Source: an uncultured Candidatus Cloacimonadota bacterium (lineage in GTDB: Bacteria > Cloacimonadota > Cloacimonadia > Cloacimonadales > JAJBBL01). Taken from it: a stretch of 64,000 bases of DNA. The stretch's first letter is position 1, and the number at the start of each line of letters is the position of its first letter. The stretch spans positions 5,035-69,034 of the forward strand of contig CAYXFD010000014.1 in NCBI GenBank assembly GCA_964464175.1, given 5' to 3'. Of this stretch, positions 4,989 through 37,428 are shown piece by piece. A model generated the notes under the pieces. The model worked only from the letters and a program-made list of their open reading frames with translations. It was not told the origin of the DNA and did no database searches. Position numbers and translations under genes: made by a program.

Positions 4989-5212
4989 TAAGTGTACCTC
5001 GTTATTCAATGTTTTGGAAAATCATCAGTTTTTGGGGCTTAATAGCTGTCAATCTCCAATTCGACAGTTGTTAAAGAACCAATACGAGGTATAATGCCTA
5101 TGTTATAGAGAATAAACATAGTTAGGCAGAGAAAAACAAAGAAGCGGAGGCTCCCTTTTTATCTGCCGGAAAGACATATCATTGATCAGAGTAGAGAATC
5201 ATCTAAAGAAAA

Positions 5213-8317: not shown

Positions 8318-8480
8318 GTTCTTTACCTCTATCTATTGCTTTTTAAAACTGATTTTTCATCTTTAAAACCGTGTATATAAATCTAAAAGATGATCAGATG
8401 AAGGAAGAAAAATCTGGGGAAACCTGTCAAGAATCAATATCAGTCTTCCGGGAGCTTCTGACCAAAGGAGCAGGATCTCC

Positions 8481-8864
8481 CGCAGAGGGAGAGGGGAGAC
8501 AAGTGAAGGAAAGCGGTTCCTTGTCAGAAATACTGAGATTGGACATGAAAAAATGTATATCAAGAAAAACCCCTTCTCAAGCTGGCAGAGAAGGGGTTTA
8601 ACTTCGCTGTTTTGACCACCTAAAACAGTCATTTAACAGCTTTTTTTATCGTATCATCTTTACCGATTATCTGGTAACGGGTAAGGGTGAAGCGACAACA
8701 CGATAATAACGACGGTTAGATGCTGCTTCGCTGTATGTTGTTACGGAACTATCCTGGTGCATCAACAATTGCCACCCTTGCAGCGGGTCAGATTCATTAG
8801 TTACCGGCTCAGATCTGGCATATATCTTGTAGGAATTGGCACCTTCCACGGTATTCCAGTTAAG
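8481..8864. repeat. 3' arm of duplicated module, copy 1 (last ~65 codons of giant gene, 3' UTR, terminator, ~85 bp beyond)
   Basis: Colinear high nucleotide similarity to 21712-22098, e.g. cgcagagggagaggggaga-aagtgaaggaaagcgg and taacgacggttagatgctgcttcgctgtatgttgtta. Confidence 0.92.
8565..8599 (-). terminator. Rho-independent terminator of giant gene 1
   Basis: 12-bp stem AAACCCCTTCTC / GAGAAGGGGTTT with a 9-nt loop, ending in a U-run on the minus strand, ~70 bp after the stop. Confidence 0.85.
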
Positions 8865-11800: not shown

Positions 11801-14800
11801 AACCTTCTGCTACATAAACATAATACCAGGAGGTACCATAATCTATCGAAGTCTCCAGAATAAGATAATCTTGATCTTCTTCCGTGCGGAAATTCATCCG
11901 GACAGAGAGGTGAGGGTTATCCAATTCGGAAAAATCAAAGACGGGAGAAACTAACCAAACATCCGAAAGATTTACATAATCGTATTCGAGAATGGTCATC
12001 CAGCAGGTCGTGCCGCTATACGCTGAATTGATCTCTGCTTGAGCAGGTGTGCCTAACTCCCAGAGATACATGCTGCTGTTTGCGTCTCCGCTCCAGTTGC
12101 CATGACCATTCTCGAAGTCTTCAAAGTAGGGGAATTGACTTATTCGAACAGGCTCTTCTTCATAGGTAAAAGACCAGATCGGACAATTCAGGGCATCTTC
12201 ACGGCTCCTGTTTCCGGTTCTCTCTCTGCCCGGAGGATCGGTCGTAGGGATTACCTGCCAGTAGTAAGTCTGACCAAAAGTGACTTCGAAGAAGGGACTT
12301 ATTTCATGGTAACCCGTTCCACCGACGACGTAGGTTTCGGCATAACCCTGCATATCGGGTTCTGTGCTTGCTCTGACTCTGAACCCGATGGGATCGGAGT
12401 AAGTCGGTGTATTTGAATAAATCCAGGCCAGTTTGGAATGAACCGATACGTTTTCAGAGTTATCGGCAGGGGAGGGGGTGTGAGCGATATAGGGGTATGG
12501 GGGATAATTGACTACTTTAACGTCATCAATGAACCAGTGGTTCAGATCATAGGGAAGACCTGAGAAGACCCAGGCTATGCGCAAACTGTCGGAGCCTACA
12601 CCATGCTCAAGGTCGGTCAGGGTCAAACGGACTGCCTCTTCTATTATAGAACTGCTGACGTTTTCCCATTCCTGAACCGGGTATTCGTCTAATCTGTCGA
12701 TTGCTAAGACTTTCAGGGTAAAAGAGTTAGAATAATGATCACAAGAGTGCTTAAAGGCAAGCTCAAGCTCAACGTAGTCAGATGTATCAAGATAAGGGGA
12801 GTATAAGTAGTATTCGCCTGATGGTTGGTGTGACCACTCATATCTCATCTCCGGTGCCTCTCCACCCGCTAAGCTGCTGTTTGTGACATACCAGTATGTA
12901 TCGTCTCTCTCCCAGTCCGCAGGGATCGTATTGAGAGCTACATCCGAAAAATCTTCATCGAGCAGGAGATTGACGATTCTTTCTATTCCCTCTCCGTAAA
13001 GGGAAACATTGTGAATATCTCTTGTCCGGTTATTATAGGCAGGTTGATTGCTTCTTACAACGGAAAGGTCTCTTGCTCCGTTAAGATTATCGTTTATTTG
13101 CAGGGATGCTTCTTTGAGTCCTATAGAAGTTGGAGCAAAACTTACCCAGACAAATACCGATTCTCCTGAGTATATAGGCAGAGTTTCAGTAAAGGGGATG
13201 TACAGATCGAACTGAGAAGCGTCTATACCGGTGATTTCGAGGTCGGAAGGAGATAATTCAATGACTCCGTATCCTGTATTTGTGATTTCAAATTCAACTT
13301 CTCTGGTGATCCTTCCCTCTTCTATCATACCGAAATCATAAGACAGAGGATAGATAGTCATTTCGGGAGTAGCTGCATCCCAGATTGAGATATCGTCAAT
13401 AGCGATGCCGTCGTAACTGACTGTGGAGTTGGAAACGAAACGAAATCTCAAATAAACTATGTATTCGTTTTCCAAACCGTCTAAGGAAGTACTGAATTCT
13501 CTCCATACTCCATCTATTCCGGGAGAGTTACCTGACCATTTAGGGGGTGATAATGAGCCGCTGCTGCCGGTATTATTGTAAAAGCCAGTATCCCCTGTTA
13601 CTTTCTGCCAGCTGTTTCCCCAGTCAACAGAAGACTCCAGTATCATTCCGTCATAGCTGTCTTCACACCAGATGTTTAACCAGACAGAGAACATAGGGAG
13701 ATGAACTTCCGAAAAGCTCAGCGGGGGAGAGATTAACCAGCTGTCGGCATTATGGTCATAGTCTGCATCTAAATAGGTCATCCAGGCATTAAAATCACTA
13801 TAGGCGCTATTGATGACACTGTTAAATTCATCAGGGCTTCCCAGTTGCCATTGATCATTGCCTGCGTCAGCACCACTATACCAGCCTGCAGCTCCGGCTT
13901 CAAAATTCTCGAAATACGGGTAGTCTGTCAGGACAGCTAAACCGGAAAGAGGAATCTCATGGATCTCTCTTGTTACGGCTTCTCTGGCAATTGGAGTTAT
14001 TTCCGTAATATTCAGATTACCGCTGCGGCTTAGATTGTCGTTTATACTTAGAGCAGCCGTTTTTTGACCTATGCTGCCGGGTAAGAAAGTAACACTGATA
14101 ACAGCAGATTCCGAATTATCAAGATAGGTAGTCTGAGTGATGTTATCAAGATAAAACTCTAAGGCATCGGGTCCGGTTATCTCAATATCCCAGGGATTTA
14201 AAACAATCGTACCATCTCCGAGATTAGTAATAAGGAATATCTGTTCATAAGAAACAGAACCCGGTTCTACTATCCCGAAATGGCCAAAGGGGGGAACGAT
14301 ATGAAATTGCGGAAATACAGGGTCCCAGTGAATAGTACCATAATACCCCGTGTCATGATAATCTTCTCCGGCAAACATTCCCGAGTAATTACTAAAGGTT
14401 ACCGAGTTCCAGGGATTGATACGCTGCACATTGTATAAACTGCCCCAGGTATTCTCAGGAAATCTAGCCCCGGTTATATTGTATTCTCCGGTTGCATTAA
14501 ATCGGAAAAGCGTTCCGCCACTTTCTCCGTTGCGGAAAGTACAGCCGGTGAAGGTGTGGTCGGTATCAACATAGGAACCGTTGCCAATATTGATACCGGT
14601 TAAATCCATCCGCTCGAAAACTGTGTATTCGGCTCCGATAAGAGAGTTATTATTTGCCGTAAAGGAATAATATCCGTCACTGCTGGTAATGAGAACCGGT
14701 TCTGCAGGAGTTCCGAGAGAGTAGAACTGCCCACCGGAATCAATAGTAAGAGATGAATTGTCAAACAAATCAAGAACAGAGTTGCCGGCTAAAGAGAATT

Positions 14801-17800
14801 TTGCATCAGCTCCGACAGTTAAACTACCTTCGAAAGCTAAAGTATGACCATTGAGGTTAATTAGTCCTGAGTCAAGGCTTAATGTCGTCCAACCGGTCAG
14901 ATTGACATCTCCGGAAATGTCGACAATACTTTCCTCACTTTTATCAATCAGTAAGGAACCCATCTGAGCATTTCCTTTCACATAAAAATCTATGTCGCTT
15001 TCATCTATGAGTTTAACTATACCGGTATCATCATTAAAGGAACCGTTTGACTCTACCAGAAAGTCTCCGTGGAATTCCTTTGCTCTTCCGGATAGTCCGT
15101 ATGACCAATCTCCATTTAGAATCTTGAAGTCACCCGTTACAATTGTGTCTTTGAAAGGCTTGACACTACCTCCGGTTTTATCGACAATAAGATCAGCAAA
15201 GAAGAAATGCGCAGCATAGTCGCTATTTAAGGTCTGATTCGTACTGCCGTTCAAAATCACTCTGTTGTTAGTTGCAGCATTGAAACCGGTAGGGTAAGAG
15301 AAGAGGTCATTTCCGTCATAGAGATTACCTGAGAGGCGGAGAGTGTTTAAGGTCTCTGAAGAAGTAATGTCCAGACCGCCACCATCCATTATGCCAAGGT
15401 TACCCCTAACATCAAGGGTAGAACCATCACCCAGCTTCATCAATCCGAAAGTGATGCCCAACCATCCTTTTACTGTCATTGTTGCGTCGTTCATTATCGT
15501 CAATTCTACCAGGTCAGGGGTACTCTTGTTAACTCCAACATTGTTGAATGATTCAGTGGAGACTTGAGCATTGCGGTCGAAATTGAAGTTAACTATGCCG
15601 TTCCCTTCAACAAACCTGTTTGCTCCAGTATCATTTATCCAGCTTCCTTTCAGATTGATAACAGAAGATTCATTTGAGCCGTTCAAATACCCTCCGGTAA
15701 GATTTACATTGCCGTTAACATTCAGGGTATGATTCAGAACACCAAAGGTACCTGAGTTTATCGTCAGATTATTGATAGTTATATCGCTGCTCAGATAACA
15801 CGCGCCTGAGCCGGTTTTGCTGATAATCAGATCATTAAGATAGTTTCCGGCAAGCATCTGTATGTCAGCAGACAAAGGACCGATCAGTTCAATAGCTCCG
15901 CTATTCTGTTGAAAACCAGGTTGCATAGCTCTGATACCCCAACCGACTTTTACCGTACCACCATTGATTGTGAGGTTACTTCCCGTTCCGAATTGCATAC
16001 CGCCGTTGGTGATTTCTAATGAACCTCCATTGATAACGGTCTCTCCGGCAAAGCTATGGTAAGCTCCGGTATAATCAGCCTGTATATCACAAAATCCGCT
16101 GTTGATAGTAAGAGTAGAGCTTGCTCCCTGAAAGAGGGTATCATAAATTGTTATACCTCCGCCAGTGATGAGTAGATTACCATATATAGCCAATTCTGAG
16201 CAGGATAGCGAACTTTCTTCGGAGAGCACAAAGTCTATACTGTTAGTGCTTACGGAAAAGATGCCTTCTACCCATAGGGAAGTGTTGTTCAGTGAAAGCC
16301 TGTTGTTGTCGGCAATAGTAAAGTCCCCGTTTACATCGATAAAACCATTTTCATTGCTGACAGTATTATTGATCTGTGGTGAGACAGGATTGTTTTTTGC
16401 TATTAGCACATTCCCGAATTTCTGTGAACCGGTAATACTATGGATTGCTTTTGGTTCAGTACCTTTGAAAACAACTAAGTTGTTTCCTTGTAAAGATGCT
16501 AAGCCCCCATTGAAGTACCAGTCACCGTAAACATCAATCTGACCGTTATTTACATCTGCAGATGAACCGCTAAGCCATTTGACATCCCGCATTACTTTGA
16601 GCAGATCGTTTGCTGAGTTCATTCTAAGAATACCGGTTATGAGCAGATCATTTTCAATAGTGACTGTCTTGCCGCTGATGTCCAATATTCCTGAGTAGAT
16701 ATCGAGATCATTATCAATTGCAATGTTTGATAAAAGGCTTACGACGGGATTAGATCTATCCTGATTGTTATCTCGTTCTACTCTGGAAGCACTGCCTTTG
16801 TTGATTATCAGATTGTTGAAGGCAGTGGCGTTTGCTGAGAAGATTGAGCTGTTCTCTGCTCCGGCAATTTCTATAGTTCCATAAGCAAAATAGAGATTCA
16901 ATCTTTCGTTTCTGAAGTTCCCATAGGAAATAATTTTCCCTCCTGAGATACCGTTAACCAGACTGTAACCATTATCCTCGAAAGTTATCCCGTTATCTAT
17001 GATGTTGAGATTACCTCCGCTCATTGTCAGGTTACAGTTACGATTGAATGGTATTCTGGCATCTCCGTTGCCGCCATAGATATTCAGGTTACCATAAGAA
17101 ATATTGAAATCAGCTTCCAGATTGATTGTTTGGGCTGAATCCTGATAAAGATTTATGGTTCCGGACTCGAGAATATAGCCCCCTTTTACTCCGTTCCCTT
17201 CGAGATCATAAGCTGTAAAAATGCCGTTGTTCCGTACTCTGATACCACCGGATGTCCATTTGTAGATATTGCACTCAACTTCGGAATCATTAATAATCAG
17301 GTTACCACTGCTGCTGTTCTCAAGTGTATCAAAGCTGACGTCCTGAATGATCTGATCTCCTGTTCCGCTGAATTTTACAGTGCTGTTAGCTCCGGCGAAA
17401 TTGGTCGGTAATCCTGACAGGTTGTGCCAGTTACCCTTTATCTCAATAATTCTGTTATGACCAAACATTACCGTTTGATTACGAAACTCAATATTGCCGT
17501 GTAATAAGATATTGGAGGCAAGAGTGATGAATGAGTTTTCCAGAGCCAGATTGTTTATTCTACTGCCGACAGAGATTGAGAAAGCACTATCGGAGATACC
17601 TTTGAGGATTAGTTCGCCGGAGTTGAAAACGATATCTCCAGTAACCTGATAAAGAGTATTGATGGTTATATCACCATTATAGTCGTTTTGAAAACAGCCT
17701 TCTGCAGAGACTACTAATCCCTGCTGTAAAAATAGATCAGAAGTTGAGTCAGATAAGTAGATAGCCCTGGCACTACCTGATTTATTGACAGTTAGCTTCC

Positions 17801-20612
17801 TGATAGTAGCCACAGGGGAAGAATTGAGCAGAATCTCAGAGTCAGAAGAGCCGGAAAAGGTCAGGTTAAGTCTGTCTAAACTGACAGTTGCTCCTTGCAT
17901 TATGTTAAAGTCTCCGGCAACATTCATCTCGATTGGATTCGCTATAATCACTGATCCTAATTCACCAACGCTTAGACTACCACCAAGGTTGGTTGTTGCT
18001 GTGTTTCCCAAAAAGGTAAGCAATCCGCTAACTGCGATATTTCCGGTTACATTGATGGTCGGTTCAGTTAGTGTGAGTGTATTGTTAGGGGTGATAATAA
18101 TAGAGCCGGCATTAATCGTGGTGTTTGTCAGGCTGCCGGCATATTGACTGAAGATTTTTAATCCTCCCCCTATGTTAAATGTCAATGGCTGATGATCACT
18201 ATAAATCCTTCCTGTAATAGTAAAATCGGTATTGATATTAGTCGTGCTGTTGTAAAAAGTAACGTCAGAGTTCTTCAAGATAGTTAAACTGTTGATGTCG
18301 ATAACAGTGCCTGAGGGTACTATTGGCATATTATTGCTAAGGGACGTAATGATAACATCGGTATTCTGTCCCGGAATAGTGTTCATAGCCCAGTTATCCG
18401 GATTGTTCCAGTCTTCATCAACACCGCCGATCCAGCTCCCTTCCGAGAAGTATGATATATCTAATGAAGCATGAGCAGACTCGTTACTCCAAACGACAAG
18501 AGCATAATGCCCGGCTTGAGATATATTTACAGTACTTTCAGCTAAACCGTCTTGCATGTTAGCAGAAAAGAGGTTATTACTCTTAGCTTTATAAGGGTCG
18601 TCATTTGAGCTGTACAATGCCATGCCCAGATTTTGATGACCTTCACTATGAATTCCTGCGAAATGATACTGCCCCGGACTCAGATAGACGCTATATATCT
18701 TCACTACTTCATTAGGTTGCATGACCAGAGTTGTTTTTTGGTTTTTTGTCAGATATTCATTCCCTACAGCTCTGGTAACATTAGCGGGGGCATTGTTTGT
18801 AATGTTTCTAATCTTAAAACCTCTTTCATGGGGAGAAACTAATGACTGGTCAAAAACGATGAAATTCGCTCCCTGCACTGCAAGAGATTTTTCAACAGTG
18901 CTGTTGAATGTTGGGCTGTTGTGCAATTCCAGATAAAACCTCGCTGCCGGATCAAATCCTCTGACCCCGATCACTTCCCAGACATTGGATTGATTGATGG
19001 TATTGCAGGCGATATAGTACTGTGGATTATTGTCCGTTTGCTGCGAATAGTTTATGTCTTCAACTGTTCCGCCGGGTCTAATTCGGAAATTTCCCTTAGA
19101 ACCGTCTCCACCGAGGATATCAGTTCCATCATAAGCCTGAACTGCTATTCTCCCCTGTTCTGTTGGTGTGCCGGGAATAATCCAGTCATACCAGTACTGA
19201 TCGGTTATCCCTTCTGCCAGAACTTCCCAGGTCGATAGAGAACCGCTTCCTCCGTCAGAGCTGTAGAATATTCTGAAGTCCTGATTAAGAGAAGATGCTT
19301 CCCAGAGTATTTCCCGTGCTTCTCCGCTGAACCATTCTTCTGCTCCATTTTCATCACCGTGCCAATCAGTAACCCCGTGTGGATGTAGAATTTTTAGATG
19401 AATACCATACCCATCACCGGGCAGTATTTTACTTACATCATCGAATTCACTGGAATGAAGATTCTCTATCCAGGGTCTATTAGGATCATGAACAGCTACG
19501 TAAGTGCTGTCGGCTGCATATCCCATTGCCGTTACAGAATGTCTCGGTATATTGCTGATAGTAGGTCTGTTTTCGTTGATACAACTGACCTGATAGTTAT
19601 AGTTAAATGATCCTCCGCCTGCATAGGTGCTGCCGGTATAGCCGTTCTGATTTAAGATATTGCAGATTCCCGGAGCGGTCATATTGGATTGTGTACCGCC
19701 GGTACTTTCGTTTGTTTCCATTACTATTGCTAATTCCTGAGTAAGATTAGGAACCCGGTGATCATGATGTTCCTCGACAGGATCCCATCTGAAAGCATGA
19801 TAATCGATAAGATTGGAGTATATTTGCGAGGAGTGTACGGCATTTACTGAGTTATAGTCATACCAACCTAATAGAATAGCCCCTGCTGTCGGCGAGCAAC
19901 CGTAAGACCATTGATAAAAGGGCATATATTCATGATTTGAGATATAGGTATAAGAACGTGAGACGGTTCTTCCATTGTTCAGGAATTCGTCCCACTCTCT
20001 ACTGAACTCGGACAGCTCGGAGGGTTCTTTTAGGCTTCTCAGGTCTTTTACAGTATCCCGGAATTGATCTTCGTCCATCAAGCCTGCCGGAGGCAGGATC
20101 TTTAGATAGAGCTTTTCCCCTTTTGCTAATACTTCATACCAAATATAAGCCTGATTAATGTAGATAATATTGCCAAAACTGTATTCAGATATTCCTTCCT
20201 GAGCGAGAATTCTCTCTCTCACCCGGTAAGTACTGTATTCGTGAGAAAGTCCTTTAGAATACTGTCTGATAACCGGCATATCCTTCCGGGCACTGACAAC
20301 CATGTTAGCAAATTCTTCGCCTACCCAATCAGCATGCCATAATCCTTCTGCCTCGTTGTTTATCCTTTCCAGTAAAATTTCACGGTCAGGAAACTGATTA
20401 TCAACAGAAAAGTTAAATCGCCAGCCTATCAGTTTACCATTTTCATCGTGATAGGGCAGAGGCTCATCACTATAGCAATCACCCCAAAGATGTTTCGCGT
20501 TGCGGAAAGCAATCTCAGTTGCCTCTGTCAAAGATATGGTTGTGTCATCACCAAAAAGGGTGGTTGCAACAACCAGCAACAATACCAGAAAATATAGAAT
20601 TCTCTTAATCAT
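8667..20612 (-). CDS. Giant secreted protein (3981 aa): signal peptide, prodomain, papain-fold C39/C10-like cysteine peptidase, Ig and PPC-like domains, long beta-helix, alternating choice-of-anchor-D/ASH Ig, MAM/cleaved-adhesin-like and FN3-like domains, conserved C-terminal domain
   Basis: AGGAGG SD; hydrophobic N-terminus; FYQWSYGCSPTAGA (C239), RHSVTAMGY (H358), VHDPN (D376); WIGGVDEDWNNPDNW motif opening the beta-helix; repeated DFG..V.....F.I.N.G.G Ig motifs and YFE.FE...W...WLxSP jelly-roll motifs. Confidence 0.88.
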   Translation of the reverse strand: MIKRILYFLVLLLVVATTLFGDDTTISLTEATEIAFRNAKHLWGDCYSDEPLPYHDENGKLIGWRFNFSVDNQFPDREILLERINNEAEGLWHADWVGEEFANMVVSARKDMPVIRQYSKGLSHEYSTYRVRERILAQEGISEYSFGNIIYINQAYIWYEVLAKGEKLYLKILPPAGLMDEDQFRDTVKDLRSLKEPSELSEFSREWDEFLNNGRTVSRSYTYISNHEYMPFYQWSYGCSPTAGAILLGWYDYNSVNAVHSSQIYSNLIDYHAFRWDPVEEHHDHRVPNLTQELAIVMETNESTGGTQSNMTAPGICNILNQNGYTGSTYAGGGSFNYNYQVSCINENRPTISNIPRHSVTAMGYAADSTYVAVHDPNRPWIENLHSSEFDDVSKILPGDGYGIHLKILHPHGVTDWHGDENGAEEWFSGEAREILWEASSLNQDFRIFYSSDGGSGSLSTWEVLAEGITDQYWYDWIIPGTPTEQGRIAVQAYDGTDILGGDGSKGNFRIRPGGTVEDINYSQQTDNNPQYYIACNTINQSNVWEVIGVRGFDPAARFYLELHNSPTFNSTVEKSLAVQGANFIVFDQSLVSPHERGFKIRNITNNAPANVTRAVGNEYLTKNQKTTLVMQPNEVVKIYSVYLSPGQYHFAGIHSEGHQNLGMALYSSNDDPYKAKSNNLFSANMQDGLAESTVNISQAGHYALVVWSNESAHASLDISYFSEGSWIGGVDEDWNNPDNWAMNTIPGQNTDVIITSLSNNMPIVPSGTVIDINSLTILKNSDVTFYNSTTNINTDFTITGRIYSDHQPLTFNIGGGLKIFSQYAGSLTNTTINAGSIIITPNNTLTLTEPTINVTGNIAVSGLLTFLGNTATTNLGGSLSVGELGSVIIANPIEMNVAGDFNIMQGATVSLDRLNLTFSGSSDSEILLNSSPVATIRKLTVNKSGSARAIYLSDSTSDLFLQQGLVVSAEGCFQNDYNGDITINTLYQVTGDIVFNSGELILKGISDSAFSISVGSRINNLALENSFITLASNILLHGNIEFRNQTVMFGHNRIIEIKGNWHNLSGLPTNFAGANSTVKFSGTGDQIIQDVSFDTLENSSSGNLIINDSEVECNIYKWTSGGIRVRNNGIFTAYDLEGNGVKGGYILESGTINLYQDSAQTINLEADFNISYGNLNIYGGNGDARIPFNRNCNLTMSGGNLNIIDNGITFEDNGYSLVNGISGGKIISYGNFRNERLNLYFAYGTIEIAGAENSSIFSANATAFNNLIINKGSASRVERDNNQDRSNPVVSLLSNIAIDNDLDIYSGILDISGKTVTIENDLLITGILRMNSANDLLKVMRDVKWLSGSSADVNNGQIDVYGDWYFNGGLASLQGNNLVVFKGTEPKAIHSITGSQKFGNVLIAKNNPVSPQINNTVSNENGFIDVNGDFTIADNNRLSLNNTSLWVEGIFSVSTNSIDFVLSEESSLSCSELAIYGNLLITGGGITIYDTLFQGASSTLTINSGFCDIQADYTGAYHSFAGETVINGGSLEITNGGMQFGTGSNLTINGGTVKVGWGIRAMQPGFQQNSGAIELIGPLSADIQMLAGNYLNDLIISKTGSGACYLSSDITINNLTINSGTFGVLNHTLNVNGNVNLTGGYLNGSNESSVINLKGSWINDTGANRFVEGNGIVNFNFDRNAQVSTESFNNVGVNKSTPDLVELTIMNDATMTVKGWLGITFGLMKLGDGSTLDVRGNLGIMDGGGLDITSSETLNTLRLSGNLYDGNDLFSYPTGFNAATNNRVILNGSTNQTLNSDYAAHFFFADLIVDKTGGSVKPFKDTIVTGDFKILNGDWSYGLSGRAKEFHGDFLVESNGSFNDDTGIVKLIDESDIDFYVKGNAQMGSLLIDKSEESIVDISGDVNLTGWTTLSLDSGLINLNGHTLAFEGSLTVGADAKFSLAGNSVLDLFDNSSLTIDSGGQFYSLGTPAEPVLITSSDGYYSFTANNNSLIGAEYTVFERMDLTGINIGNGSYVDTDHTFTGCTFRNGESGGTLFRFNATGEYNITGARFPENTWGSLYNVQRINPWNSVTFSNYSGMFAGEDYHDTGYYGTIHWDPVFPQFHIVPPFGHFGIVEPGSVSYEQIFLITNLGDGTIVLNPWDIEITGPDALEFYLDNITQTTYLDNSESAVISVTFLPGSIGQKTAALSINDNLSRSGNLNITEITPIAREAVTREIHEIPLSGLAVLTDYPYFENFEAGAAGWYSGADAGNDQWQLGSPDEFNSVINSAYSDFNAWMTYLDADYDHNADSWLISPPLSFSEVHLPMFSVWLNIWCEDSYDGMILESSVDWGNSWQKVTGDTGFYNNTGSSGSLSPPKWSGNSPGIDGVWREFSTSLDGLENEYIVYLRFRFVSNSTVSYDGIAIDDISIWDAATPEMTIYPLSYDFGMIEEGRITREVEFEITNTGYGVIELSPSDLEITGIDASQFDLYIPFTETLPIYSGESVFVWVSFAPTSIGLKEASLQINDNLNGARDLSVVRSNQPAYNNRTRDIHNVSLYGEGIERIVNLLLDEDFSDVALNTIPADWERDDTYWYVTNSSLAGGEAPEMRYEWSHQPSGEYYLYSPYLDTSDYVELELAFKHSCDHYSNSFTLKVLAIDRLDEYPVQEWENVSSSIIEEAVRLTLTDLEHGVGSDSLRIAWVFSGLPYDLNHWFIDDVKVVNYPPYPYIAHTPSPADNSENVSVHSKLAWIYSNTPTYSDPIGFRVRASTEPDMQGYAETYVVGGTGYHEISPFFEVTFGQTYYWQVIPTTDPPGRERTGNRSREDALNCPIWSFTYEEEPVRISQFPYFEDFENGHGNWSGDANSSMYLWELGTPAQAEINSAYSGTTCWMTILEYDYVNLSDVWLVSPVFDFSELDNPHLSVRMNFRTEEDQDYLILETSIDYGTSWYYVYVAEGFYNNDEGIGSFPLPMWSGTSDGWTLYSTALPSELANQEMIMFRFRFLSNSSITDEGFAIDDITIWQPLPPELVITPSSHDFGEIRVNSESTVQEFTLSNAGDGTITINPGNVMLMGDDYLDFTLSEITETIVLSGDTTANIGVTFAPDTAGPKSAYVEIFSSDIPLRESNISLEQSKRDRSASQRSLSTINLTGEALPRPAGSTWENPFVIESFPLTNYQDHTEHYGNDYSSTDILPNSMFIGGNDFVAQFEVFDEGWFSADITGTSMVGIFLMQNTPDPGSPAPLLAYAVNLASTAAIESFVLDPGFYYLIVSTSQGQQTTPFTLNVNFEPFPVIPEFSYNPDHLDFNAVHINQTSNIELITITNTGGGLLEVRPEDISLTGDHAAEFSHNFLETIYLGMSESFSFSVSFSPLSLGAKNAILRIEDPFGEEVRFSSNVTRNPRSDNTQRTSYDITLEGIGYDGTIIPPHTEAFTGSLFPPLEWKIYSGLLTENSELTPASSVWNHHPFANTGEVNNSAHIQIVGARNHWLVTPPIDLGSGNKRLEFDIALTPSAGSEQTDLGENDLIAVVISYDDGVTWSQNNILKSWEFPETISPAGETVSIDLESIAGTVKIGFYAERPFGLTPNNRFYVTNFSVSEIPENPVLEVSLNEMDFGVQNLYTESVIQEFIISNAGTGTLTIDPSQISLTGDNPDQFILDNLEETVHLILHDTAVIGVRFSPDSEGSKNASIVISEELSERISITPSASLHGNTEDIPVPRSDYQISLSGTGYDPTISVPFTVNLMPFPPTDWEKPFGVLTENSEFSPSSSADWVSASFANNPENDWGARIRLRVATSESVHRWFISPPIDMNDLEADYELVFDIAVTELNSEEPAQLGTQDFFAVVVSSDNGVTWSASNTIYSLSGLNGDPVAAGGEQVIVSLSGVEGTVKLGFYMERPSGIDPEINFHLSNIHTRETASVLATPIISSAYLENGVFYLNWNTVEGANSYKIYARSEPVTNESDPLQGWQLLMHQDSSVTTYSEAASNRRYYRVVASPLPVTR

Positions 20613-20693
20613 TAATCCTCCTGTGGACTAGTAATCGCTTTATTTTTTTTGAATGAATTTACATTAACTTCTCGGCTTTGGTTGAGGCTCTCT

Positions 20694-21092
20694 CTATTGT
20701 GAGATGTTGTTCCCGAATTCTGTTTTTTGGGTCTGTTCATCATTCTCCTGTTCTGGCTTAGGGGAGAATAGTGAGTTCAATTGATTCAAACGGTAGGGGT
20801 GTTTCAGAGAGGTAAAGACTCCATAACGGACATTATCTATCGTATTGCAAAGACCTGAATCGCTCACAATAACAACTCTTACAGCGGGATAGGTCTTGTT
20901 AATGTAACGGATAATGCTGAAATCATCAAGATTCGATAAACAATAAAGCACAGCCTCAATAGCTCCTCCGGCGAGTATCTGAAAAATTGCCTGCTTAGTT
21001 ACTGCTGCATAGACTTCACACTTATAGGTCTGGAAGTAGTCTCTCAATTCTGTTTCTTCAGACTGATTTGCTTTAGCAATGAGAATCTTCAT
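20694..21092 (-). CDS. Degenerate (Asp-less) response-regulator receiver domain protein, copy 1
   Basis: CheY-like pattern MKILIA...AVLY(C)...YPAVRVVIVS...G...LKHPY; acidic pocket and phospho-Asp absent; TAAGGA SD; near-identical duplicate at 32829-33227. Confidence 0.78.
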   Translation of the reverse strand: MKILIAKANQSEETELRDYFQTYKCEVYAAVTKQAIFQILAGGAIEAVLYCLSNLDDFSIIRYINKTYPAVRVVIVSDSGLCNTIDNVRYGVFTSLKHPYRLNQLNSLFSPKPEQENDEQTQKTEFGNNISQ

Positions 21093-21173
21093 CTTTTATC
21101 CTTACTATTTTTCTTTGGTATCTCTTATGCATTCTTATCTTCTAATGGTTACAGATATCTAATTTAGACAATA

Positions 21174-21190
21174 ACCAACATTTGTGCCAA
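21174..21190 (-). promoter_or_regulatory. Putative sigma-54 (-24/-12) promoter, module 1
   Basis: Minus strand reads TTGGCAC-AAATG-TTGGT versus consensus TGGCAC-N5-TTGCW (-12 imperfect); same position in copy 2; sigma-54 activator encoded in the locus. Confidence 0.68.
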
Positions 21191-21210
21191 TTGGTTATTG
21201 TGTTCTGAGG

Positions 21211-21220
21211 CAATAAGTTA
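21211..21220. promoter_or_regulatory. IHF-like site between promoter and enhancer, module 1
   Basis: CAA-TAAG-TTA matches the CAA-N4-TTR core of the IHF consensus; copy 2 has CAA-GAAG-TTA at the same 27-bp offset from the -24 box. Confidence 0.4.
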
Positions 21221-21254
21221 AGGATTTATCGATAGTTCAGGTATTTTTCCTCAT

Positions 21255-21359
21255 TATCCGGTTTCGGATAGTGGTACGGCAATATAGCAGCGTAAGTAGT
21301 AATGGAGTTGCAAGTTAAGGTTTTTATCCGAATTCGGATAACATATCCGATTTCGGATA
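21255..21359. promoter_or_regulatory. Three palindromic TATCCG-N4-CGGATA sites, putative bEBP enhancer (UAS), module 1
   Basis: Perfect inverted repeats at 21255-21270, 21325-21340 and 21344-21359, about 65-170 bp upstream of the -24 box. Confidence 0.78.
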
Positions 21360-21711
21360 GTGGGTTCAGGGGAAGTTCGACTCTATTTTCAGTTAGAGAT
21401 AGAAAACTATGCTAAAATATTCAGTAGCTTTTGATTATTGAGACCAAGCAAAGCAATTTCTACGATACTAAAACTTTCTCAAAGCCTGCACTTTTAGCAG
21501 GTAAAATTTTCGCTATTAAAAGAACAGAACCGACAGTAGTGAGTTCATGCTTATGCCTATGCAGCTCTTTTTTACTCAGTATCAAAACCGGGTTCATGAA
21601 GCTAAAGATAATCAGAGGAAGAGACATAAAACTATCCAAAAGATGTAAAGATTCAATATCTTTCTTCCGTTGAGTGTTTCGAAAGTTTATGAACAACTGA
21701 ATATGATATCT

Positions 21712-22098
21712 CGCAGAGGGAGAGGGGAGAGAAGTGAAGGAAAGCGGCTCTTTGTCACATTTAATCAGAGTTGGCATGAAAATGTATATATCAAGAAAAA
21801 ACCCCTTCTCCAGCTGGCAGAGAAGGGGTTTTCAGTTTGCTGTTTTGACCAGCTAAAAACAGTCCAATACAGCGTTATTTTATTAGATCATGTCTACCGG
21901 TTATCTGGTAACGGGTAAAGGTGAAGCTACTACCCGGTAATAACGACGGTTAGATGCTGCTTCGCTGTATGTTGTTAAGGAACTATCCTGCTGCATCAAC
22001 AATTGCCACCCATTCAGTGGGTCAGTTTCATTAGTTACCGGCTCAGACCTGGCATATATCTTGTAGGAGTTGGCACCTTCCACAGCATCCCAGCTTAA
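21712..22098. repeat. 3' arm of duplicated module, copy 2
   Basis: Homologous to 8481-8864. Confidence 0.92.
21796..21832 (-). terminator. Rho-independent terminator of giant gene 2
   Basis: Stem AAAACCCCTTCTC / GAGAAGGGGTTTT ending in a U-run on the minus strand. Confidence 0.85.
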
Positions 22099-25000
22099 AT
22101 AGACGGTACTCCCTGCTACACTGATAGTAACATTCTGAGGGGATTGAAGAGCTCCGGAAACTTGCGGAGTTGCTTCAACGGTGTTAGAATGTCCCGATTC
22201 TCCTTCTTCGTAAACTGCCGTAACGTAGTACTCGTAAGTAACGCCATTTACAACATTATTATCCGTATATTCCGTTCCTTCCACCGGTTCTTCGTTGATC
22301 TGTTCACTATTCCGGTAAACATTGTAACCCAGGAAAGAGATGCGGGAGCTTCTCTGTTGGAAATAGTCCTTATCTGAGTTCAAATTTATATCGTTTCCGT
22401 CCGGCCTTACAGGAGGGTTAATGTCATCCCAGCTCAGATCAACGGCTCCGTCCCTCGCTGTAGCTGCAAGGTTTTGAGGAACCGGTAAACTGAGAGTGGT
22501 AAAAGACATAACTTCACTCCAGGCTCTGCCTCTCGGATTGTCTGCAAAGGCAATGTAGTAAATGTCACTTCCCTGTTCCAGGTTTTCGGCTAAGGCGGAA
22601 AAACTCTCCCCGGGACTGCTGGAATTAACTAATAAACCAGAATTAGCCGGGTCAGGATCGGTGTCATAGTAGAAACCTTTTTCCAGGATGGGGAGATCTC
22701 CCGTTGAGGTTATTTGAGCATTTAATACTGCCTCAAAATAGTTAACCTCTGTAGCAGCATTTGTTATAACAGCAGGAGAGTCTCCACCCAGAATAATCCC
22801 ATCCAGATGCCAGCCGGTTATGTTATAGCTATTACCGTCGAAAACCCAGGCAAGTCGCAGATTGTCAGCTCCCACTCCATGTTCTGCTGTGGTCAAAAGA
22901 TAATCCAGTTCTTGAGCAGCGAGACTGGAATCCACATTCAACCATTCCTGAATCAGGTAGCTGTCAGTATCAACGATGGAATAGATCCGGAGATCGAATA
23001 CACCGTCAAGATGATCCACCTGCTGTTTGAACGTTAGATCGATCTGACTGAGACCGGAGGTATCGAAAAGAGGAGAGAGGAGAGTCACTTCACCGATGAT
23101 GTGAGGATCGAAACTGAAGAGCATTTCAGGGCTTTCAGAACCGGCTTGGCTGGTGCCGCTGACCCACCAGTTGAGATGACTGCTTTCCCAGCCTGCGGGG
23201 AGGCTTCCCTCATCTTCGATACTGAAGCCTTCATAGTAGGGAACATTTTCTGTTACAAGTTGATAGCCAAAACCGGTTATCCCAATGGAATGAATTTCGC
23301 GCTCAAATGACCTGCTGTGGTTTTTGATAAATAATTCCCGACCCGGTGCACTTCCCTCAACAATATTGATCACGGCTTCTTTTTGTCCGGTTTCATTGGG
23401 TCTGAATTTAGCTCCGATCGTTGTACTCTGACCGGAACTCAATTCAACAGGAGAACTTAGGTTGATCAGTTCAAATTCAGCCGGATGCCAGCCAGCGAGA
23501 GAAATATCATCCGGACTGAGATACAACAATCCTTCTCCCGTATTGGTTATCTCAAAATACTGAACAGGTGAACTCTCGTCCACTTCTACTCTCCCGAAGT
23601 CATGTGAGGAAGGATTGAGAGTAAGAATCGAATACTCACGTTCCCAAATCCGGATATCATCAATAGCAAATCCTTCTTCTGTGACCGATTCGTTAGAGGC
23701 AAAACGGAAACGGAGCCGTACCTGCGGTTGGTGTGCCAAAGATGAAAGAGAAGTGCTGAATTCTGTCCAGCCTCCGCTATTGCCAGACCATTTGGGTACG
23801 TTAAGCGGTCCCAGTAAAGAGGTATTGTTGTAAAATCCTGTATCGGCTTCCACATAGAACCAGTTGCTGCCGCCGTCTATTGTAGCTTCCAGGATCATAC
23901 CGTCATAATCAGGCTCAGTCTGATGATTTATCCGGACGGAAAACATCGGCTCATCCAAAGCTGTAAAATCAAAGAGTGGGGAACGGAGCCAGATATCAGC
24001 ACCGTTCATATAATTTCCCCCTAAGTTTGTCATCCAGGCATAATCTCCGCTATAGGCACTGTTGATAACCGTCTGAGACGGTTCTCCCTGCTGCCAGATA
24101 TTCATACCGGAGATCCTGCCCCCTTTCCAGCCGCCGTCACTCAGTTCGAAATCTTCGAAATAGGGAAAAATTTCAATAGCAGTTGCATCTGCCAGGAGGG
24201 TGAATGACCAGATAGGGCAGTTTTCCGCCGAACTGCGGATGGAAGCATTTTCTCGCAGCACATTATACTGCAAGGGGTGTGATAACTCCGGATTCTCGTC
24301 CCGAAGGAGACTGCGGGTGTGTTCTTCTCCGGAAGCTGATGGGATGACCTGCCAGTAATAGGTCTGACCATATTCAAGTGTGAAAAATGGAGGCATGGAA
24401 TGGGTTCCGGGACCACCCCAAAGTACATCTGATTGATAGGTCGCGAGGGTTGGATCTGTTCCGGCTCTGATCTGATAAACTACCGGATCGGTATAACCCT
24501 CCTGTGAAGTGTAAGTCCATTCCAAAAAAGTCTCCATAGGAACATCGATAGCTCCGTCTTCAGGTTGCGGAGAATGAGCTGTTGCGGGCGGAGCGATGGT
24601 GTTCCAGATGCGGAAATCGTCAATAGCGATTCCTTCATCTACATAAGCTTCACCGTAATCTCCGTCGGAAGTAAAACGAAAACAGAACCAAACCTGAGGT
24701 TCATTTGCTAAAAACGGTAAAGAAGTACTGTACTCTGTCCAGATACCGTCAACTTCTTCTGTTCTGCCGGACCAGTTAGGATGGCTGGGAGCCGGTAAGC
24801 TCATCCGGTTGTAGAATCCGTCATCTCCAATCACTTGCTGCCAACTGCTGTTATCGAGAGAGTATTCCAGGATCATTCCGTCGTAAGAGGCTTCACTCCA
24901 GATATTCAGCCAGACCGAGAGGTTGGGATCATCCAATTCGCTGAAATCGAAAACCGGAGATTTGAGCCAGGTATCAGCTTCATTTTCATAGTTTTGATCT

Positions 25001-33585: not shown

Positions 33586-34971
33586 TTATAAAATGAGGGT
33601 TAGGTTGTGTTTTTTTAATCTCCTTTCAAGGGTCTGCCAGGTAATATTGAGGAGTTTAGCCGCCTGAAGTTTGTTATTATCTGTATGCTTAAGGGCTCGT
33701 TGAATTGTTTCTCTTTCAATATCTTCCAAATCAAACCGCGAATTCTGATCATAGATATTATCTCCCTTATCATCGGGAAACAGAGATTCAAAAACGAAAT
33801 GTTTTTTCTGCAGTTTGGAGCCTTTACACAGGATAACAGCCCGTTCAACCATATTTTTAAGTTCCCGGACATTTCCGGGAAAATGGTATCTGTTCAGTTT
33901 ATCCATCAGAGATGTTTCTATACCGGTAATCGGTTTATTTGTTTTAATGGCAAAGGCCTTAACAAACTGTTCTATCAAAAGAGGTATATCTTCCTTTCTT
34001 TCTCTCAGAGGGGGGATGAATATCTTATAGGTGTTTATCCTATGATAAAGATCCTGTCTGAATTTCCCTTCCTTGAGCAATTGAACGATATCTTGGTTCG
34101 TGGCGGTCATTATTCTGGTGTTGAATCTGATATCCGAATTTGAGCCGAGTCTTCTTACTTTTCCATCTTCGGAGATCCGGAGAAGCTTAGCCTGCATCAT
34201 TGGCTGCATATCACCGATCTCATCGAGGAAGAGGGTTCCTTTATCGGCTATCTCAAACCATCCCGGTTTATTGGTCAGAGCATTAGTAAAAGCTCCTTTT
34301 ACATAACCGAAAAACTCGCTTTCAAAGAGGTTTTCAGGGATAGCAGCACAATTGACAGCATGGAAAAAACCGTTCTTTCTGGGACTGAGATGGTGAATAG
34401 TACGGGCTATGAGCTCTTTTCCGGTTCCACTCTCACCTGTGATCATAACAGGCAGATCAGGATTCTCTGCTGCCAGTTTGATCATTTCTACTACTTTCAG
34501 GATAGCCTGGCTTTTTCCGATAATGCGAAGACCTACATTGTCGAAGAGTTCTTCCAGAAGAGAGTCGTAATTCTTTCTGATCTGAGAGTAATTACGGGAA
34601 AGATATATGTATCTTTTGGTTCGTTCAATGGCATTCATTACTTCCGAGAGTCTGACCGGTTTGTTAAAAAAATCGGCTGCCCCATATCTCATCGCTTCGA
34701 TGGCGACTTCCATACTACCCTGACCGGTTATGATCAGTACCTCGATATCAGGATCAAATTCTTTGATCTCCTGAAGTACCGTCAGTCCGTCCTTTTCCGG
34801 GAGGTTAATGTCAACTATTGCAATATCGATCTGGTGTTTTCGGTAGATTTTTTCGGCTTCATAAGGTGTACCGGCATTATAAGTAAGATAACCGTTATCA
34901 TTAAAAAAATCGACGAGTTCTTCCCGAATTCGTTTTTCGTCATCAAGAACAAGAATGCTCAGCTTTTCCAT
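33586..34971 (-). CDS. Sigma-54-dependent NtrC/AtoC-family response regulator (REC-AAA+-Fis HTH)
   Basis: LDDE...IVDINLP receiver; GESGTGKE Walker A; ESEFFG..KGAFTNA loop; LFLDEIG; FRQDLYHR; FPGNVREL; AAKLLNI HTH. Confidence 0.96.
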   Translation of the reverse strand: MEKLSILVLDDEKRIREELVDFFNDNGYLTYNAGTPYEAEKIYRKHQIDIAIVDINLPEKDGLTVLQEIKEFDPDIEVLIITGQGSMEVAIEAMRYGAADFFNKPVRLSEVMNAIERTKRYIYLSRNYSQIRKNYDSLLEELFDNVGLRIIGKSQAILKVVEMIKLAAENPDLPVMITGESGTGKELIARTIHHLSPRKNGFFHAVNCAAIPENLFESEFFGYVKGAFTNALTNKPGWFEIADKGTLFLDEIGDMQPMMQAKLLRISEDGKVRRLGSNSDIRFNTRIMTATNQDIVQLLKEGKFRQDLYHRINTYKIFIPPLRERKEDIPLLIEQFVKAFAIKTNKPITGIETSLMDKLNRYHFPGNVRELKNMVERAVILCKGSKLQKKHFVFESLFPDDKGDNIYDQNSRFDLEDIERETIQRALKHTDNNKLQAAKLLNITWQTLERRLKKHNLTLIL

Positions 34972-34973
34972 GG

Positions 34974-37310
34974 TTAAAACTCCTTAAGTAATGCGAAACA
35001 GATAGTGATTTCTGTAAAAAGGTTAACTTCACTCCGGACAGAAATCTCACCATCCATTTCCCGGATAATACCGTAACTGATCGATAAACCTAAACCTGTT
35101 CCCTTATCAGGTGTTTTGGTAGTAAAGAAAGGATCATAGATCTTATCGATAATCTCTTTCGGTATCCCTGTACCGTTGTCAGTTATCTCTATTACTGCCT
35201 GCTTCTCCTTGATCTTTGTGCTTATCCTGATACTCTTTTTATGATTGGATTCACTCCCGGCAGCGGCTTTTTCTTCTATTGCATCTTTGGCATTACTTAC
35301 CAGGTTCAATAAAACTTGTTCCAGTTTGTATCTATCACCGGAGATCGGAAGTTCGCTCTTGATTAATCTTAGTTCTAAATCAATTCCACTTTTTGAGATT
35401 GTATGATGGATCAGGCTAACAGCACTTTTCACAACTTCATTTAATTCAATCTGTTCAACCAGACTGTCATTCTGATTTCTGGAGAAAAGTCTCACATGTT
35501 CGATGATCTTTCTTATCCGCAGAATGTCTTCTTGAGTATTGCTGCATTTATTTGTTAAATAGTCATTACTAAGGAGTCCCAACTTTACTTTGTTCTGAAT
35601 GTTATCAATGCTCATGGAGATTGCTGATAGTGGTTGATTGATCTCGTGGGCTATTCCGGCAGCAAAATTTCCCAGAGATTCCAATTTCGATTTCTGGGCA
35701 ATAATTTGCTGATGTTTCTGATAATCAGCTACTGCTTTATTGATCTTGGTTTCGAGTTCCTGATTCAGCGTTTCGAGCTCTTTCTGGACTTGCCTTCTCT
35801 TTTTTACCTCTTTCTGCTTTGCTCTATAAAGCAGAGCCAGACTCAATGCAACAGCTCCGATAGCCAGGGTGAGATAAAGAATTCTTAACTTGGCTCTGAT
35901 CTGTTGCGCTATTTTTTCTTCCTGAATCTGCTGTTGAGTTTTTAGCACAAAGATCTCTTCAGTCTTTTTTTCGGTTTCGAAACGAACCATCATCTCAGCT
36001 ATTACATCCTTCTTTTCGATAGCATAAACATCCAGGTCTAACTCTATATAGTCTTTGTAAGCCTCGACAGCCCGCCTATAATCACCCTGCTCTTCATAGA
36101 TTATAGCAAATTGTCTTAGATTATTCAGCTGCATTTTCTGATCGTTAATCAAAAGGGAATATTCATAAGATTTTTCTGCATTCAGCAATGCTTCAGTTAA
36201 ATCTCCGCTTAAGATCAGCAATTCACTGATATTGTTGTGAGTAGTAGCAATACCTTCATAGTCATTCAAGCGTTCCTTAATACTAATAGCTTCGTAATAA
36301 TAACTTAGAGCTTCAGAGAATTCTCTTCTTCTCAGGTAGGTGTTTCCAAGATTATTTAATACTCTGCTCTGCTCTCTGAGCATATTATAAGTAACAAAGA
36401 TATCAAGAGCTTCTTGATTATATGTTAAAGCTGTTTCAGTTCGATTAAGATCATTGTAGGTAGAGCCAAGATTTGCTTTGACTTGTGCAGCATTGATCGT
36501 ATCTCCAATTGTGCTATACAATTCCAGAGCTTTTTCGTAGTATGCTATGGCTTTAACATAATCTGTGGCTGTGTAATAAAGGTTACCAAGATTAGTATTC
36601 GCTGCCGCTAATTCGTTGTCATCTCCATAAGTCTCTTTGATTCTCAGGGATATGATATATGCTTCACCCGCTGCTGCTGTATCTCCGGATTTCAAAAGGG
36701 CATTACCGAGATTATTGAAAATTGCTGCTGAGAGTTTCGGATGCTGAGTTTGATCAGTCATTTCAGCAGCAGCCTGAAAGAAGTGAATAGCCTGTTGATA
36801 CTCCTGCTGTTCCCAGTAAATGAGTCCGATACTATTCAGGGAGGAACTTTCATCCTCTCTGGTGGGAAGGTCTTGCCGATAGGAGAGAGATTTGTGCAGG
36901 TTTTCCAGAGCAGATGAATAACTACCGGTATTAGTATAAGACCTGCCCAAATTATAATAAAGATCTCCCAGTAGTTTGTTATCTGAAGACTCGTGAGCCG
37001 GAGCTAAAGCAGAGGAATAATAGTTGAGTGCTGGCTCCATTTCTCCCCTGATAAAATGAATGTTTCCTTTAATCTTGAGGGCTAATCCTATCTCATAATC
37101 GAGTTTCAAGGCGGCTGCCAGTTTTTCAGCCCGTTCAGCGTACTCAGCAGCACGGTCAAGATCGCTTTGTAATGATTCTTCAGCAATTTGCAGTAAGTAT
37201 CCCGTTTCCAGTTCCTGGTCGGGGTAGTCATCCAAGCGGTCAGATTCAACCGAAGTGAAGAGCATTCCCAGCGATAGGGTAAAGATACAAACAAGCATTA
37301 TGCATTTCAT
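34974..37310 (-). CDS. Membrane sensor histidine kinase with extracytoplasmic TPR array (probable start ATG 37310; ORF track uses TTG 37346)
   Basis: N-terminal hydrophobic segment; about 8 TPRs (NNLGN motifs); TM helix; AGIAHEINQPL H-box; NLVSNAKDA, DNGTG, DPFFTTK, GTGLGL; ends 2 bp before the NtrC gene. Confidence 0.93.
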   Translation of the reverse strand: MKCIMLVCIFTLSLGMLFTSVESDRLDDYPDQELETGYLLQIAEESLQSDLDRAAEYAERAEKLAAALKLDYEIGLALKIKGNIHFIRGEMEPALNYYSSALAPAHESSDNKLLGDLYYNLGRSYTNTGSYSSALENLHKSLSYRQDLPTREDESSSLNSIGLIYWEQQEYQQAIHFFQAAAEMTDQTQHPKLSAAIFNNLGNALLKSGDTAAAGEAYIISLRIKETYGDDNELAAANTNLGNLYYTATDYVKAIAYYEKALELYSTIGDTINAAQVKANLGSTYNDLNRTETALTYNQEALDIFVTYNMLREQSRVLNNLGNTYLRRREFSEALSYYYEAISIKERLNDYEGIATTHNNISELLILSGDLTEALLNAEKSYEYSLLINDQKMQLNNLRQFAIIYEEQGDYRRAVEAYKDYIELDLDVYAIEKKDVIAEMMVRFETEKKTEEIFVLKTQQQIQEEKIAQQIRAKLRILYLTLAIGAVALSLALLYRAKQKEVKKRRQVQKELETLNQELETKINKAVADYQKHQQIIAQKSKLESLGNFAAGIAHEINQPLSAISMSIDNIQNKVKLGLLSNDYLTNKCSNTQEDILRIRKIIEHVRLFSRNQNDSLVEQIELNEVVKSAVSLIHHTISKSGIDLELRLIKSELPISGDRYKLEQVLLNLVSNAKDAIEEKAAAGSESNHKKSIRISTKIKEKQAVIEITDNGTGIPKEIIDKIYDPFFTTKTPDKGTGLGLSISYGIIREMDGEISVRSEVNLFTEITICFALLKEF

Positions 37311-37428
37311 GAGCTCTTTTAATGGTATAGTGATATAATCTGTCAAATTATTTGTTGAACACCTGAGCGGGATATCAGTAAAAGAACAGTACGATGAAAG
37401 CTAACGATTTGCTGCTTTGTTCTATCTA

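Follow-up and report, generated by a model that had tools for sequence, protein, structure and literature searches.

Twin giant proteins of an uncultured Cloacimonadota bacterium with predicted zymogen-like papain-fold heads, one bearing cysteine and the other serine at the nucleophile position

Introduction

In a 64,000-nucleotide stretch of DNA from an uncultured Candidatus Cloacimonadota bacterium (forward strand of contig CAYXFD010000014.1, assembly GCA_964464175.1; hereafter the window, meaning the whole stretch that was analysed), two long open reading frames (ORFs) lie in tandem on the minus strand: giant 1 (8667..20612, 3981 amino acids) and its collinear paralog giant 2 (21901..32493, 3530 amino acids), which are 27% identical across 1829 aligned columns. 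A first-pass annotation of the sequence had seen a papain-fold peptidase in the head of each protein, with the catalytic Cys present in giant 1 and a Ser at the same place in giant 2, and had proposed that giant 2 is a pseudo-peptidase or a rare variant with a Ser nucleophile. The question that this locus raises is whether both heads are enzymes or whether one of them is the inactive twin of the other. We favor, with a probability of about three in four, the reading that both heads are zymogen-like papain-fold modules, giant 1 being a live peptidase and giant 2 a fixed pseudo-peptidase paralog, and that the two are probably induced together.

Results

Fold of the two heads

The heads were modelled with AlphaFold2 (AF2) from residues 1-420 of giant 1 (predicted local distance difference test score 88.4, predicted template modelling score 0.87) and residues 1-421 of giant 2 (90.3 and 0.88, respectively), and a papain fold was predicted for both. 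The top Foldseek matches of the two heads were identical. When aligned with VIA-align, the giant 1 model matched the SpeB zymogen 1dki_D at Z 15.4 (238 residues aligned, root-mean-square deviation (rmsd) 3.7), prostaphopain B (1x9y_A) at Z 14.1 and prointerpain A (3bb7) at Z 13.1; the giant 2 model matched the SpeB zymogen at Z 14.8 (1pvj_A) and Z 14.7 (1dki_D), prostaphopain B (1x9y_A) at Z 13.9 and prointerpain A (3bb7) at Z 13.6. These zymogen alignments, at Z 13.1-15.4, span model residues 22/24 to 399-406 in both giants, and those of giant 1 with the SpeB zymogen and prostaphopain B cover its residues 24-399/401. The C39 domains of LahT, ComA, PCAT1 and 3erv matched at Z of about 12-13, with rmsd 2.3-2.7 over 123-130 residues. 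By VIA-align, giant 1 reached Z 12.9 with the C39 domain of LahT (6mpz_D, 128/141 aligned), 12.1 with 3erv and 11.9 with the peptidase domain of ComA (ComA PEP), and giant 2 reached Z 13.2 with LahT (6mpz_A) and 12.7-12.8 with ComA PEP. 3erv was among the matches listed for giant 1 only, and the papain-fold seed protein 2b1m_A, which has no Cys, was among the fold matches of giant 2. From the zymogen and C39 matches taken together, it follows that each head consists of a signal peptide, a pro-domain and a papain-fold peptidase domain. On the AF2 model and the zymogen alignments, the pro-domain-like part of giant 1 lies at 19968..20552 (minus strand, about residues 21-215) and its peptidase domain at 19407..19967 (minus strand, about residues 216-402); the corresponding parts of giant 2 are the pro-domain-like segment at 31858..32436 (minus strand, about residues 20-212) and the pseudo-peptidase domain at 31276..31857 (minus strand, about residues 213-406).

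Among the sequence families, the match of giant 1 was borderline. PF13529 (Peptidase_C39_2), with a gathering cut-off of 24 bits, matched giant 1 at 22.5-22.8 bits on a piece of 420-450 amino acids and at 26.1 bits in the frame, and matched giant 2 weakly (14.6 bits, E 0.049); 29 of 34 aligned family members matched it at E <= 0.01, with a best E of 3.5e-11. Two of the 34 matched Peptidase_C10 (PF01640), at E 0.0022 or worse, and giants 1 and 2 gave no match to it at E <= 10, so that by sequence the heads are not members of C10 or C47. The canonical C39 family (PF03412) was absent from the Pfam matches of the giants and of the 34 family members, and PF13734 gave no match at E <= 0.01 among the members of the A3 alignment. 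Neither do the giants have the canonical arrangement of a C39 domain on an ABC transporter, since their domain comes after a signal peptide, at the head of a secreted protein. A profile of the peptidase part (A5, 19 sequences) matched two papain-fold enzymes of solved structure, Mug105 (7oiy_A, E 4.1e-5), a deubiquitinase of the ZUFSP type, and GtgE (E 4.1e-4), and aligned the family His and the Asp at +18 with the His and Asp of both; His151 and Asp169 of GtgE are catalytic, according to the accessible text of PMC5140068. A phmmer search of the giant 1 head against PDB sequences returned chance matches only. For the homolog P0004, the ESM Atlas gave PF13529 neighbour clusters only, one of them with Inhibitor_I69 on 14% of its members, which is no more than a lead. 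The papain-fold (C39/C10-like) assignment proposed in the first-pass annotation thus holds for both giants, with PF13529 across most of the family and the SpeB and staphopain zymogens at Z 14-15.

Catalytic residues

We then asked whether the residues of the active site occupy their expected places. In the giant 1 model, C239 (codon TGC, 19896-19898, minus strand) opens the helix 239-257, H358 (CAT, 19539-19541, minus strand) opens the strand 358-366 and D376 (GAT, 19485-19487, minus strand) stands just after the strand 371-375. Within the model, these are the canonical places of the triad in the papain fold, namely Cys at the helix N-terminus, His at the start of a strand and Asp by the next strand, as in an active clan CA peptidase. 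In the giant 2 model, S236 (TCC, 31786-31788, minus strand; helix 236-252) and H359 (CAC, 31417-31419, minus strand; strand 355-367) are found in the equivalent places. The first 450 amino acids of the two giants are 27% identical by BLASTP (E 5e-33), and this alignment and two made with MAFFT pair C239 with S236, H358 with H359 and D376 with a Ser alike. Giant 2 therefore keeps the His and has Ser at both the Cys and the Asp positions, and does not hold the triad of an active clan CA enzyme.

The codons and coordinates that the first-pass annotation had given for C239, H358, D376 and S236 were confirmed by script, and the motifs that it quoted are all present. Its placement of S236 at the Cys position, drawn from an ungapped alignment, is borne out by BLASTP and MAFFT, as is the retention of H359 with loss of the HDP Asp. 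What did not stand was the upstream Gln, which had been put at residue 233 of giant 1 and counted as part of the papain-fold signature: residue 233 turns out to be Tyr, with the Gln next to it as Q234 (Q231 in giant 2), and the family column reads D 69, E 18, L 12 and Q 8.

The nucleophile site across the family

We searched 1.84 billion cluster representatives exhaustively with a profile, and 309 matched at E <= 0.001. Re-alignment of the best 150 of the 309 together with giant 2 gave 162 matched stretches, 24 of which do not cover the Cys column; the remaining 138 read C in 132, S in 4, A in 1 and R in 1, and the His column reads H in 128 of the 131 stretches that cover it. The members without Cys are giant 2, P0003, P0032 and P0132 (all Ser), P0053 (Ala) and P0073 (Arg), and the His is also gone in P0032, P0073 and P0132. 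It appears from the alignment that Cys was lost independently in other lineages (P0032, P0073, P0132 and P0053) and that dead heads amount to some 6 of 138 sequences. In a sample of the phylum the family occurred in 16 of 151 genomes, and 17 of the 18 aligned copies read GC.P. Two genomes besides this one have a pair of copies, and in each pair both members carry Cys. A search of 203 genomes of the order gave 22 matching places, and the nine other loci that were fetched all read GC.P and carry the His (9/9).

Giant 2 also departs from the family around the site, at near-invariant columns: W232G (W in 132/138), G235S (G in 133), P238T (P in 133) and D249N (D in 125/136). By its sequence, then, giant 2 is more than a Cys-to-Ser swap.

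The lineage of giant 2

One ortholog of giant 2 was found, P0003, a partial protein of 927 amino acids from a Cloacimonadaceae metagenome-assembled genome (per its source), which is 71% identical to giant 2 over those 927 amino acids. Its nucleophile region reads MPLLQGMYSSETTAAAMLLCWW, with the SSET motif as in giant 2; it keeps the His, has no HDPN and keeps the equivalent of Cys246 (LLCWW). Along giant 2, identity to P0003 is 56% for residues 116-215, 80% for residues 216-260 with the Ser helix (the highest within the head), 54% for residues 261-345 and 32% for residues 346-410, which hold the His strand and that of the former Asp; downstream of the head it is 76-82%.

A FastTree phylogeny of 63 sequences, built on match columns, grouped giant 2 with P0003 (support 1.0), and the stem leading to the two is 1.09 substitutions per site long. 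Their clade is nested (support 0.996) in one of 22 tips that includes giant 1 and is otherwise Cys-bearing, and the root-to-tip distances of its two members are 2.38 and 2.70 versus a median of 1.66. The position in the tree and the SSET motif common to P0003 imply that the loss of Cys is old, having preceded the divergence of giant 2 and P0003, and happened once in the lineage, with a burst of change, and that the Ser state has been maintained since. The pseudo-peptidase reading of the first-pass annotation is supported to this extent by the sequences: the fold appears to be kept, Cys and Asp are lost, and the state is the same in the one ortholog, P0003.

For the fixation of the Ser, the survey of orthologs gives n=2, as P0003 reads SSET and no further ortholog was found. 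Genome contigs and metagenome contigs were each scanned twice, and none came to light (one of these scans returned four Bacteroidia loci, all matching a downstream repeat); a protein search at similar lengths gave none at E <= 1e-10, and one at longer lengths gave P0003 only. There was likewise none in 40 relatives and none in the 203 genomes of the order, where the best non-self match scored 550 bits versus 2359 for self.

A relative of giant 2 was seen in sediment metagenomes (runs X9 and X11, compared over 30800-32640) as short contigs in which about 1 base in 10-20 is different; these contigs leave out 31641-31815, the span that contains the Ser codon. The sediment relative has a two-codon insertion near residue 368, and P0003 has an insertion at the same place. 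Among its changed codons, 17 of 29 are synonymous, a count drawn from the subset of 31 of 172 differences that were listed.

The gene pair and its control

Giant 1 runs from the signal peptide, pro-domain and papain-fold peptidase with Cys-His-Asp into a long region, residues 401-2400, in which no Pfam match was found, and then into MAM-like/choice-of-anchor J and Ig-like/choice-of-anchor D domains. In its own genome (2.9 Mb, 56 contigs, 100% complete by markers) the family is represented by these two giants only. The last ~60 amino acids of giants 1 and 2 are ~92% identical versus 27% for the bodies, and the 3' ends with the DNA downstream of them (8442-8869 versus 21673-22103) are 78-86% identical in nucleotides, which in sequence terms points to homogenised ends around diverged bodies in twin units.

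The same holds upstream, where the 5' cassettes (20744-21341 versus 32879-33475) are 80-96% identical in nucleotides. That both the 5' cassettes and the 3' ends are far more alike than the bodies suggests that the tandem units have undergone gene conversion or exchanged cassettes. Each cassette includes an ORF of 132 amino acids upstream of its giant (20694..21092 for giant 1 and 32829..33227 for giant 2, both on the minus strand); the two are 86% identical in amino acids and 96% in nucleotides over 300 nt, match Response_reg weakly (E 0.1-0.14) and look like degenerate receivers leading each giant's unit. By eye, they have KILIAKANQ in place of the acidic pair of receivers. A homolog of this ORF with 36% identity stands upstream of the giant in locus L023.

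A sigma-54-like -24/-12 element, TGGCAC-N5-TTG, is present in each cassette upstream of the small ORF (21176..21189 and 33310..33323, minus strand), and these are the only two sites in the window. Each cassette also has, again upstream of the small ORF, three copies of the palindrome TATCCGAwwyCGGATA, at 21255-21270, 21325-21340 and 21344-21359 for giant 1 and at 33389-33404, 33459-33474 and 33477-33492 for giant 2. In the 2.9-Mb genome the palindrome has seven sites, six of them at the twin promoters, and a reversed-pattern control gave 0; judging by this distribution, one activator may have the twin giants as its entire regulon. The seventh site, on contig C16 with one mismatch, falls within a coding frame, and we took it for a chance occurrence. 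A candidate activator of the cassettes is the response regulator with a sigma-54 interaction domain and HTH_8 that is encoded directly upstream of the giant 2 cassette (33586..34971, minus strand), with the TPR-histidine kinase at 34974..37346 (minus strand) as candidate partner sensor. A hairpin followed by a T run, terminator-like (21797..21833, minus strand; minimum free energy -23 kcal/mol, z -4.39), comes after the stop codon of giant 2, and therefore the two giants are probably separate units with the same control. The first-pass annotation had placed both giants under the same regulation, and at the level of DNA this appears to be right, by way of the duplicated upstream cassettes. Among the sequencing runs listed as carrying 30800-33400 there was no RNA run. 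The frame of giant 2 is open over its 10.6 kb, as had also been noted.

The G+C content is 0.46-0.49 in the body of giant 2 (22001-32000), 0.41-0.46 in giant 1 and 0.39-0.41 in intergenic and neighbouring DNA, and the heads of giants 1 and 2 are not sister sequences in the family tree. One of the two giants may have been acquired by transfer. An ORF of 100 amino acids (32506-32808, minus strand) lies between the small ORF and giant 2; it matches no family, the giant 1 unit has nothing equivalent, and it may be no real gene. On its downstream side, giant 1 is followed by a Tricorn-like S41 protease with PD40 repeats and by another large beta-helix protein (3-5009 and 5213-8317, minus strand), the latter extending past the edge of the window.

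Discussion

The alternative that bears most directly on the site is that giant 2 is a working Ser-His dyad enzyme, with Ser236 or Ser235 and His359, acting as a hydrolase or acyl-transferase of new specificity. It is conceivable in view of how well the two residues and the Ser helix have been retained: the Ser stands exactly at the nucleophile position on the helix N-terminus and His359 at the usual start of the strand, both are found again in P0003, and the Ser segment is the best preserved of the head between the orthologs. Ser-type papain-like SERA proteins also exist and were formerly debated as enzymes, according to the accessible part of PMC2878606. However, the Asp is gone, the near-invariant positions W232, G235, P238 and D249 beside the site are changed as well, the region of the His-bearing strand is the least conserved part, and the other Ser members, P0032 and P0132, are without the His too; moreover, the portion of PMC5500368 that is available treats SERA5, of all Ser-type papain folds the one studied best, as a pseudoprotease. 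We consider a working dyad improbable. It is far harder to accept that Cys246 in LFCWW (31756-31758, minus strand), a residue that the first-pass annotation had put forward as a conceivable occupant of the nucleophile site, took over that role in giant 2. It is indeed kept in P0003, but it sits ten residues into the helix that begins at S236, which by standard helix geometry would put it ~15 Å down and inside the core, and its column in the family (G 61, A 44, S 14, W 9, C 3) is a core packing position for small residues; we regard this takeover as very improbable.

An explanation that leaves the site aside is that the peptidase heads cut peptidoglycan and not proteins, in which case a giant surface fibre would carry a wall-lysing tip. 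The accessible text of PMC8223927 places PF13529 with the enzymatically active domains that phage lysins carry, and the pseudomurein endoisopeptidase 8z4n_A was among the fold matches of giant 2 (Z 13.6), but the module as a whole is matched best by proteases that cleave proteins and have pro-domains (SpeB, staphopain and interpain) and a Tricorn-like S41 protease adjoins the pair. To us such a substrate seems unlikely, although none of these observations tells the two substrate classes apart. Hardly credible, finally, is the idea that the Ser arose from faulty assembly or sequencing, or that giant 2 is a pseudogene in decay. A single base change would turn TGC into TCC; however, contigs of two further sludge runs (X6 and X8; 11,011 nt each) have 0 differences over 30800-32958, the entire motif differs (SSET versus GCSP) and recurs in P0003, the frame is open with high identity to P0003 downstream of the head, and the changes listed for the sediment relative are synonymous in more than half of the affected codons.

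The reading of giant 1 as a live peptidase and giant 2 as its fixed pseudo-peptidase paralog has points that weigh against it as well. The proximity of C239, H358 and D376 is taken from fold homology and from their secondary-structure positions in the model, and the piece of giant 1 searched by itself scores slightly below the PF13529 cut-off. His359 is kept in the region with 32% identity to P0003 and Ser236 in the segment with 80%, a pattern from which the site of giant 2 could still be in use, and the fixation of the Ser state is read from two sequences.

If the favored reading of the twins is right, both would be exported by the Sec pathway from a sludge bacterium of the Cloacimonadota type, each with a head of 420 amino acids in which an N-terminal pro-domain packs against a peptidase domain of the C39-like/clan CA type. 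Giant 1 would be a latent cysteine peptidase held by its pro-domain, as in SpeB and staphopain, which would become active after cleavage of the pro-domain and act at the tip of a long stalk bearing MAM-like and Ig-like binding domains. Giant 2 would present the same head without the chemistry, most likely as a non-catalytic binding or scaffold head. The two would be switched on together through their near-identical sigma-54-type cassettes and handled alike through their near-identical C-terminal ~60 amino acids. The Tricorn-like S41 protease next door fits a protein-degrading theme. It is tempting, if rather doubtful, to go further and suppose that the head or pro-domain of giant 2 binds giant 1 or its substrates and so sets when and where the protease fires. 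The Spi inhibitor is related to the pro-domain of streptopain, a parallel for such regulation of giant 1 by giant 2; if true, giant 2 would be a bacterial surface counterpart of SERA5.

Among known systems, SpeB (MEROPS C10; 1dki, 1pvj), staphopain B (C47; 1x9y) and interpain A (C10; 3bb7) have the same architecture of pro-domain and papain-fold domain, with sequence identity of just 11-14% to the giants; they are free secreted enzymes of 40 kDa, whereas the giants carry the module as the head of 3500-4000 amino acids. C39-like peptidases (PF13529; 3erv) are the best sequence family for the heads, and the C39 domains of PCAT/AMS transporters (ComA PEP 3k8u, LahT 6mpz, PCAT1) have the same fold, at Z 12-13. 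C39 peptidases and giant 1 also share the order Cys, His, Asp, with the Asp 18 residues after the His. Unlike the C39 systems, the giants have a pro-domain and neither an ABC transporter nor any sign of a double-glycine leader system, and the Gln before the Cys is not conserved in their family. Our literature search, supplements aside, found no paper on C39 peptidases of Cloacimonadota.

That a papain-fold enzyme may have a dead paralog is a well-known principle, as in HlyB's C39-like domain (CLD) and in SERA5. The HlyB CLD (3zua) has Tyr in place of the Cys and persists as a module without proteolytic function, according to the accessible text of PMC8277102. Like giant 2, it is a C39-type fold without the catalytic Cys, but it is cytoplasmic and part of a transporter, whereas giant 2 has Ser for Cys, is secreted and stands beside an intact paralog. 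The SERA proteins of Plasmodium are papain-like paralogs with Cys or Ser at the nucleophile position, and the Ser-type members are regarded as non-catalytic or regulatory, as far as the available portions of PMC5500368 and PMC2878606 go. They resemble the giants in having Cys-type and Ser-type paralogs within one papain-like family; they differ in being eukaryotic, of a different sub-family and without a giant stalk, and the homology is limited to the fold. The novelty lies in the family setting and the twin arrangement, that is, a zymogen-like head on giants of Cloacimonadota, named so by no database. The heads of these giant Cloacimonadota proteins, whose family has no name (309 cluster representatives), are now assigned a fold, that of a zymogen-like pro-peptidase. 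And in contrast with the systems above, the Cys-type and Ser-type members form a natural pair in one genome under seemingly identical controls, which makes them a convenient system for the role of a pseudo-protease beside its active twin.

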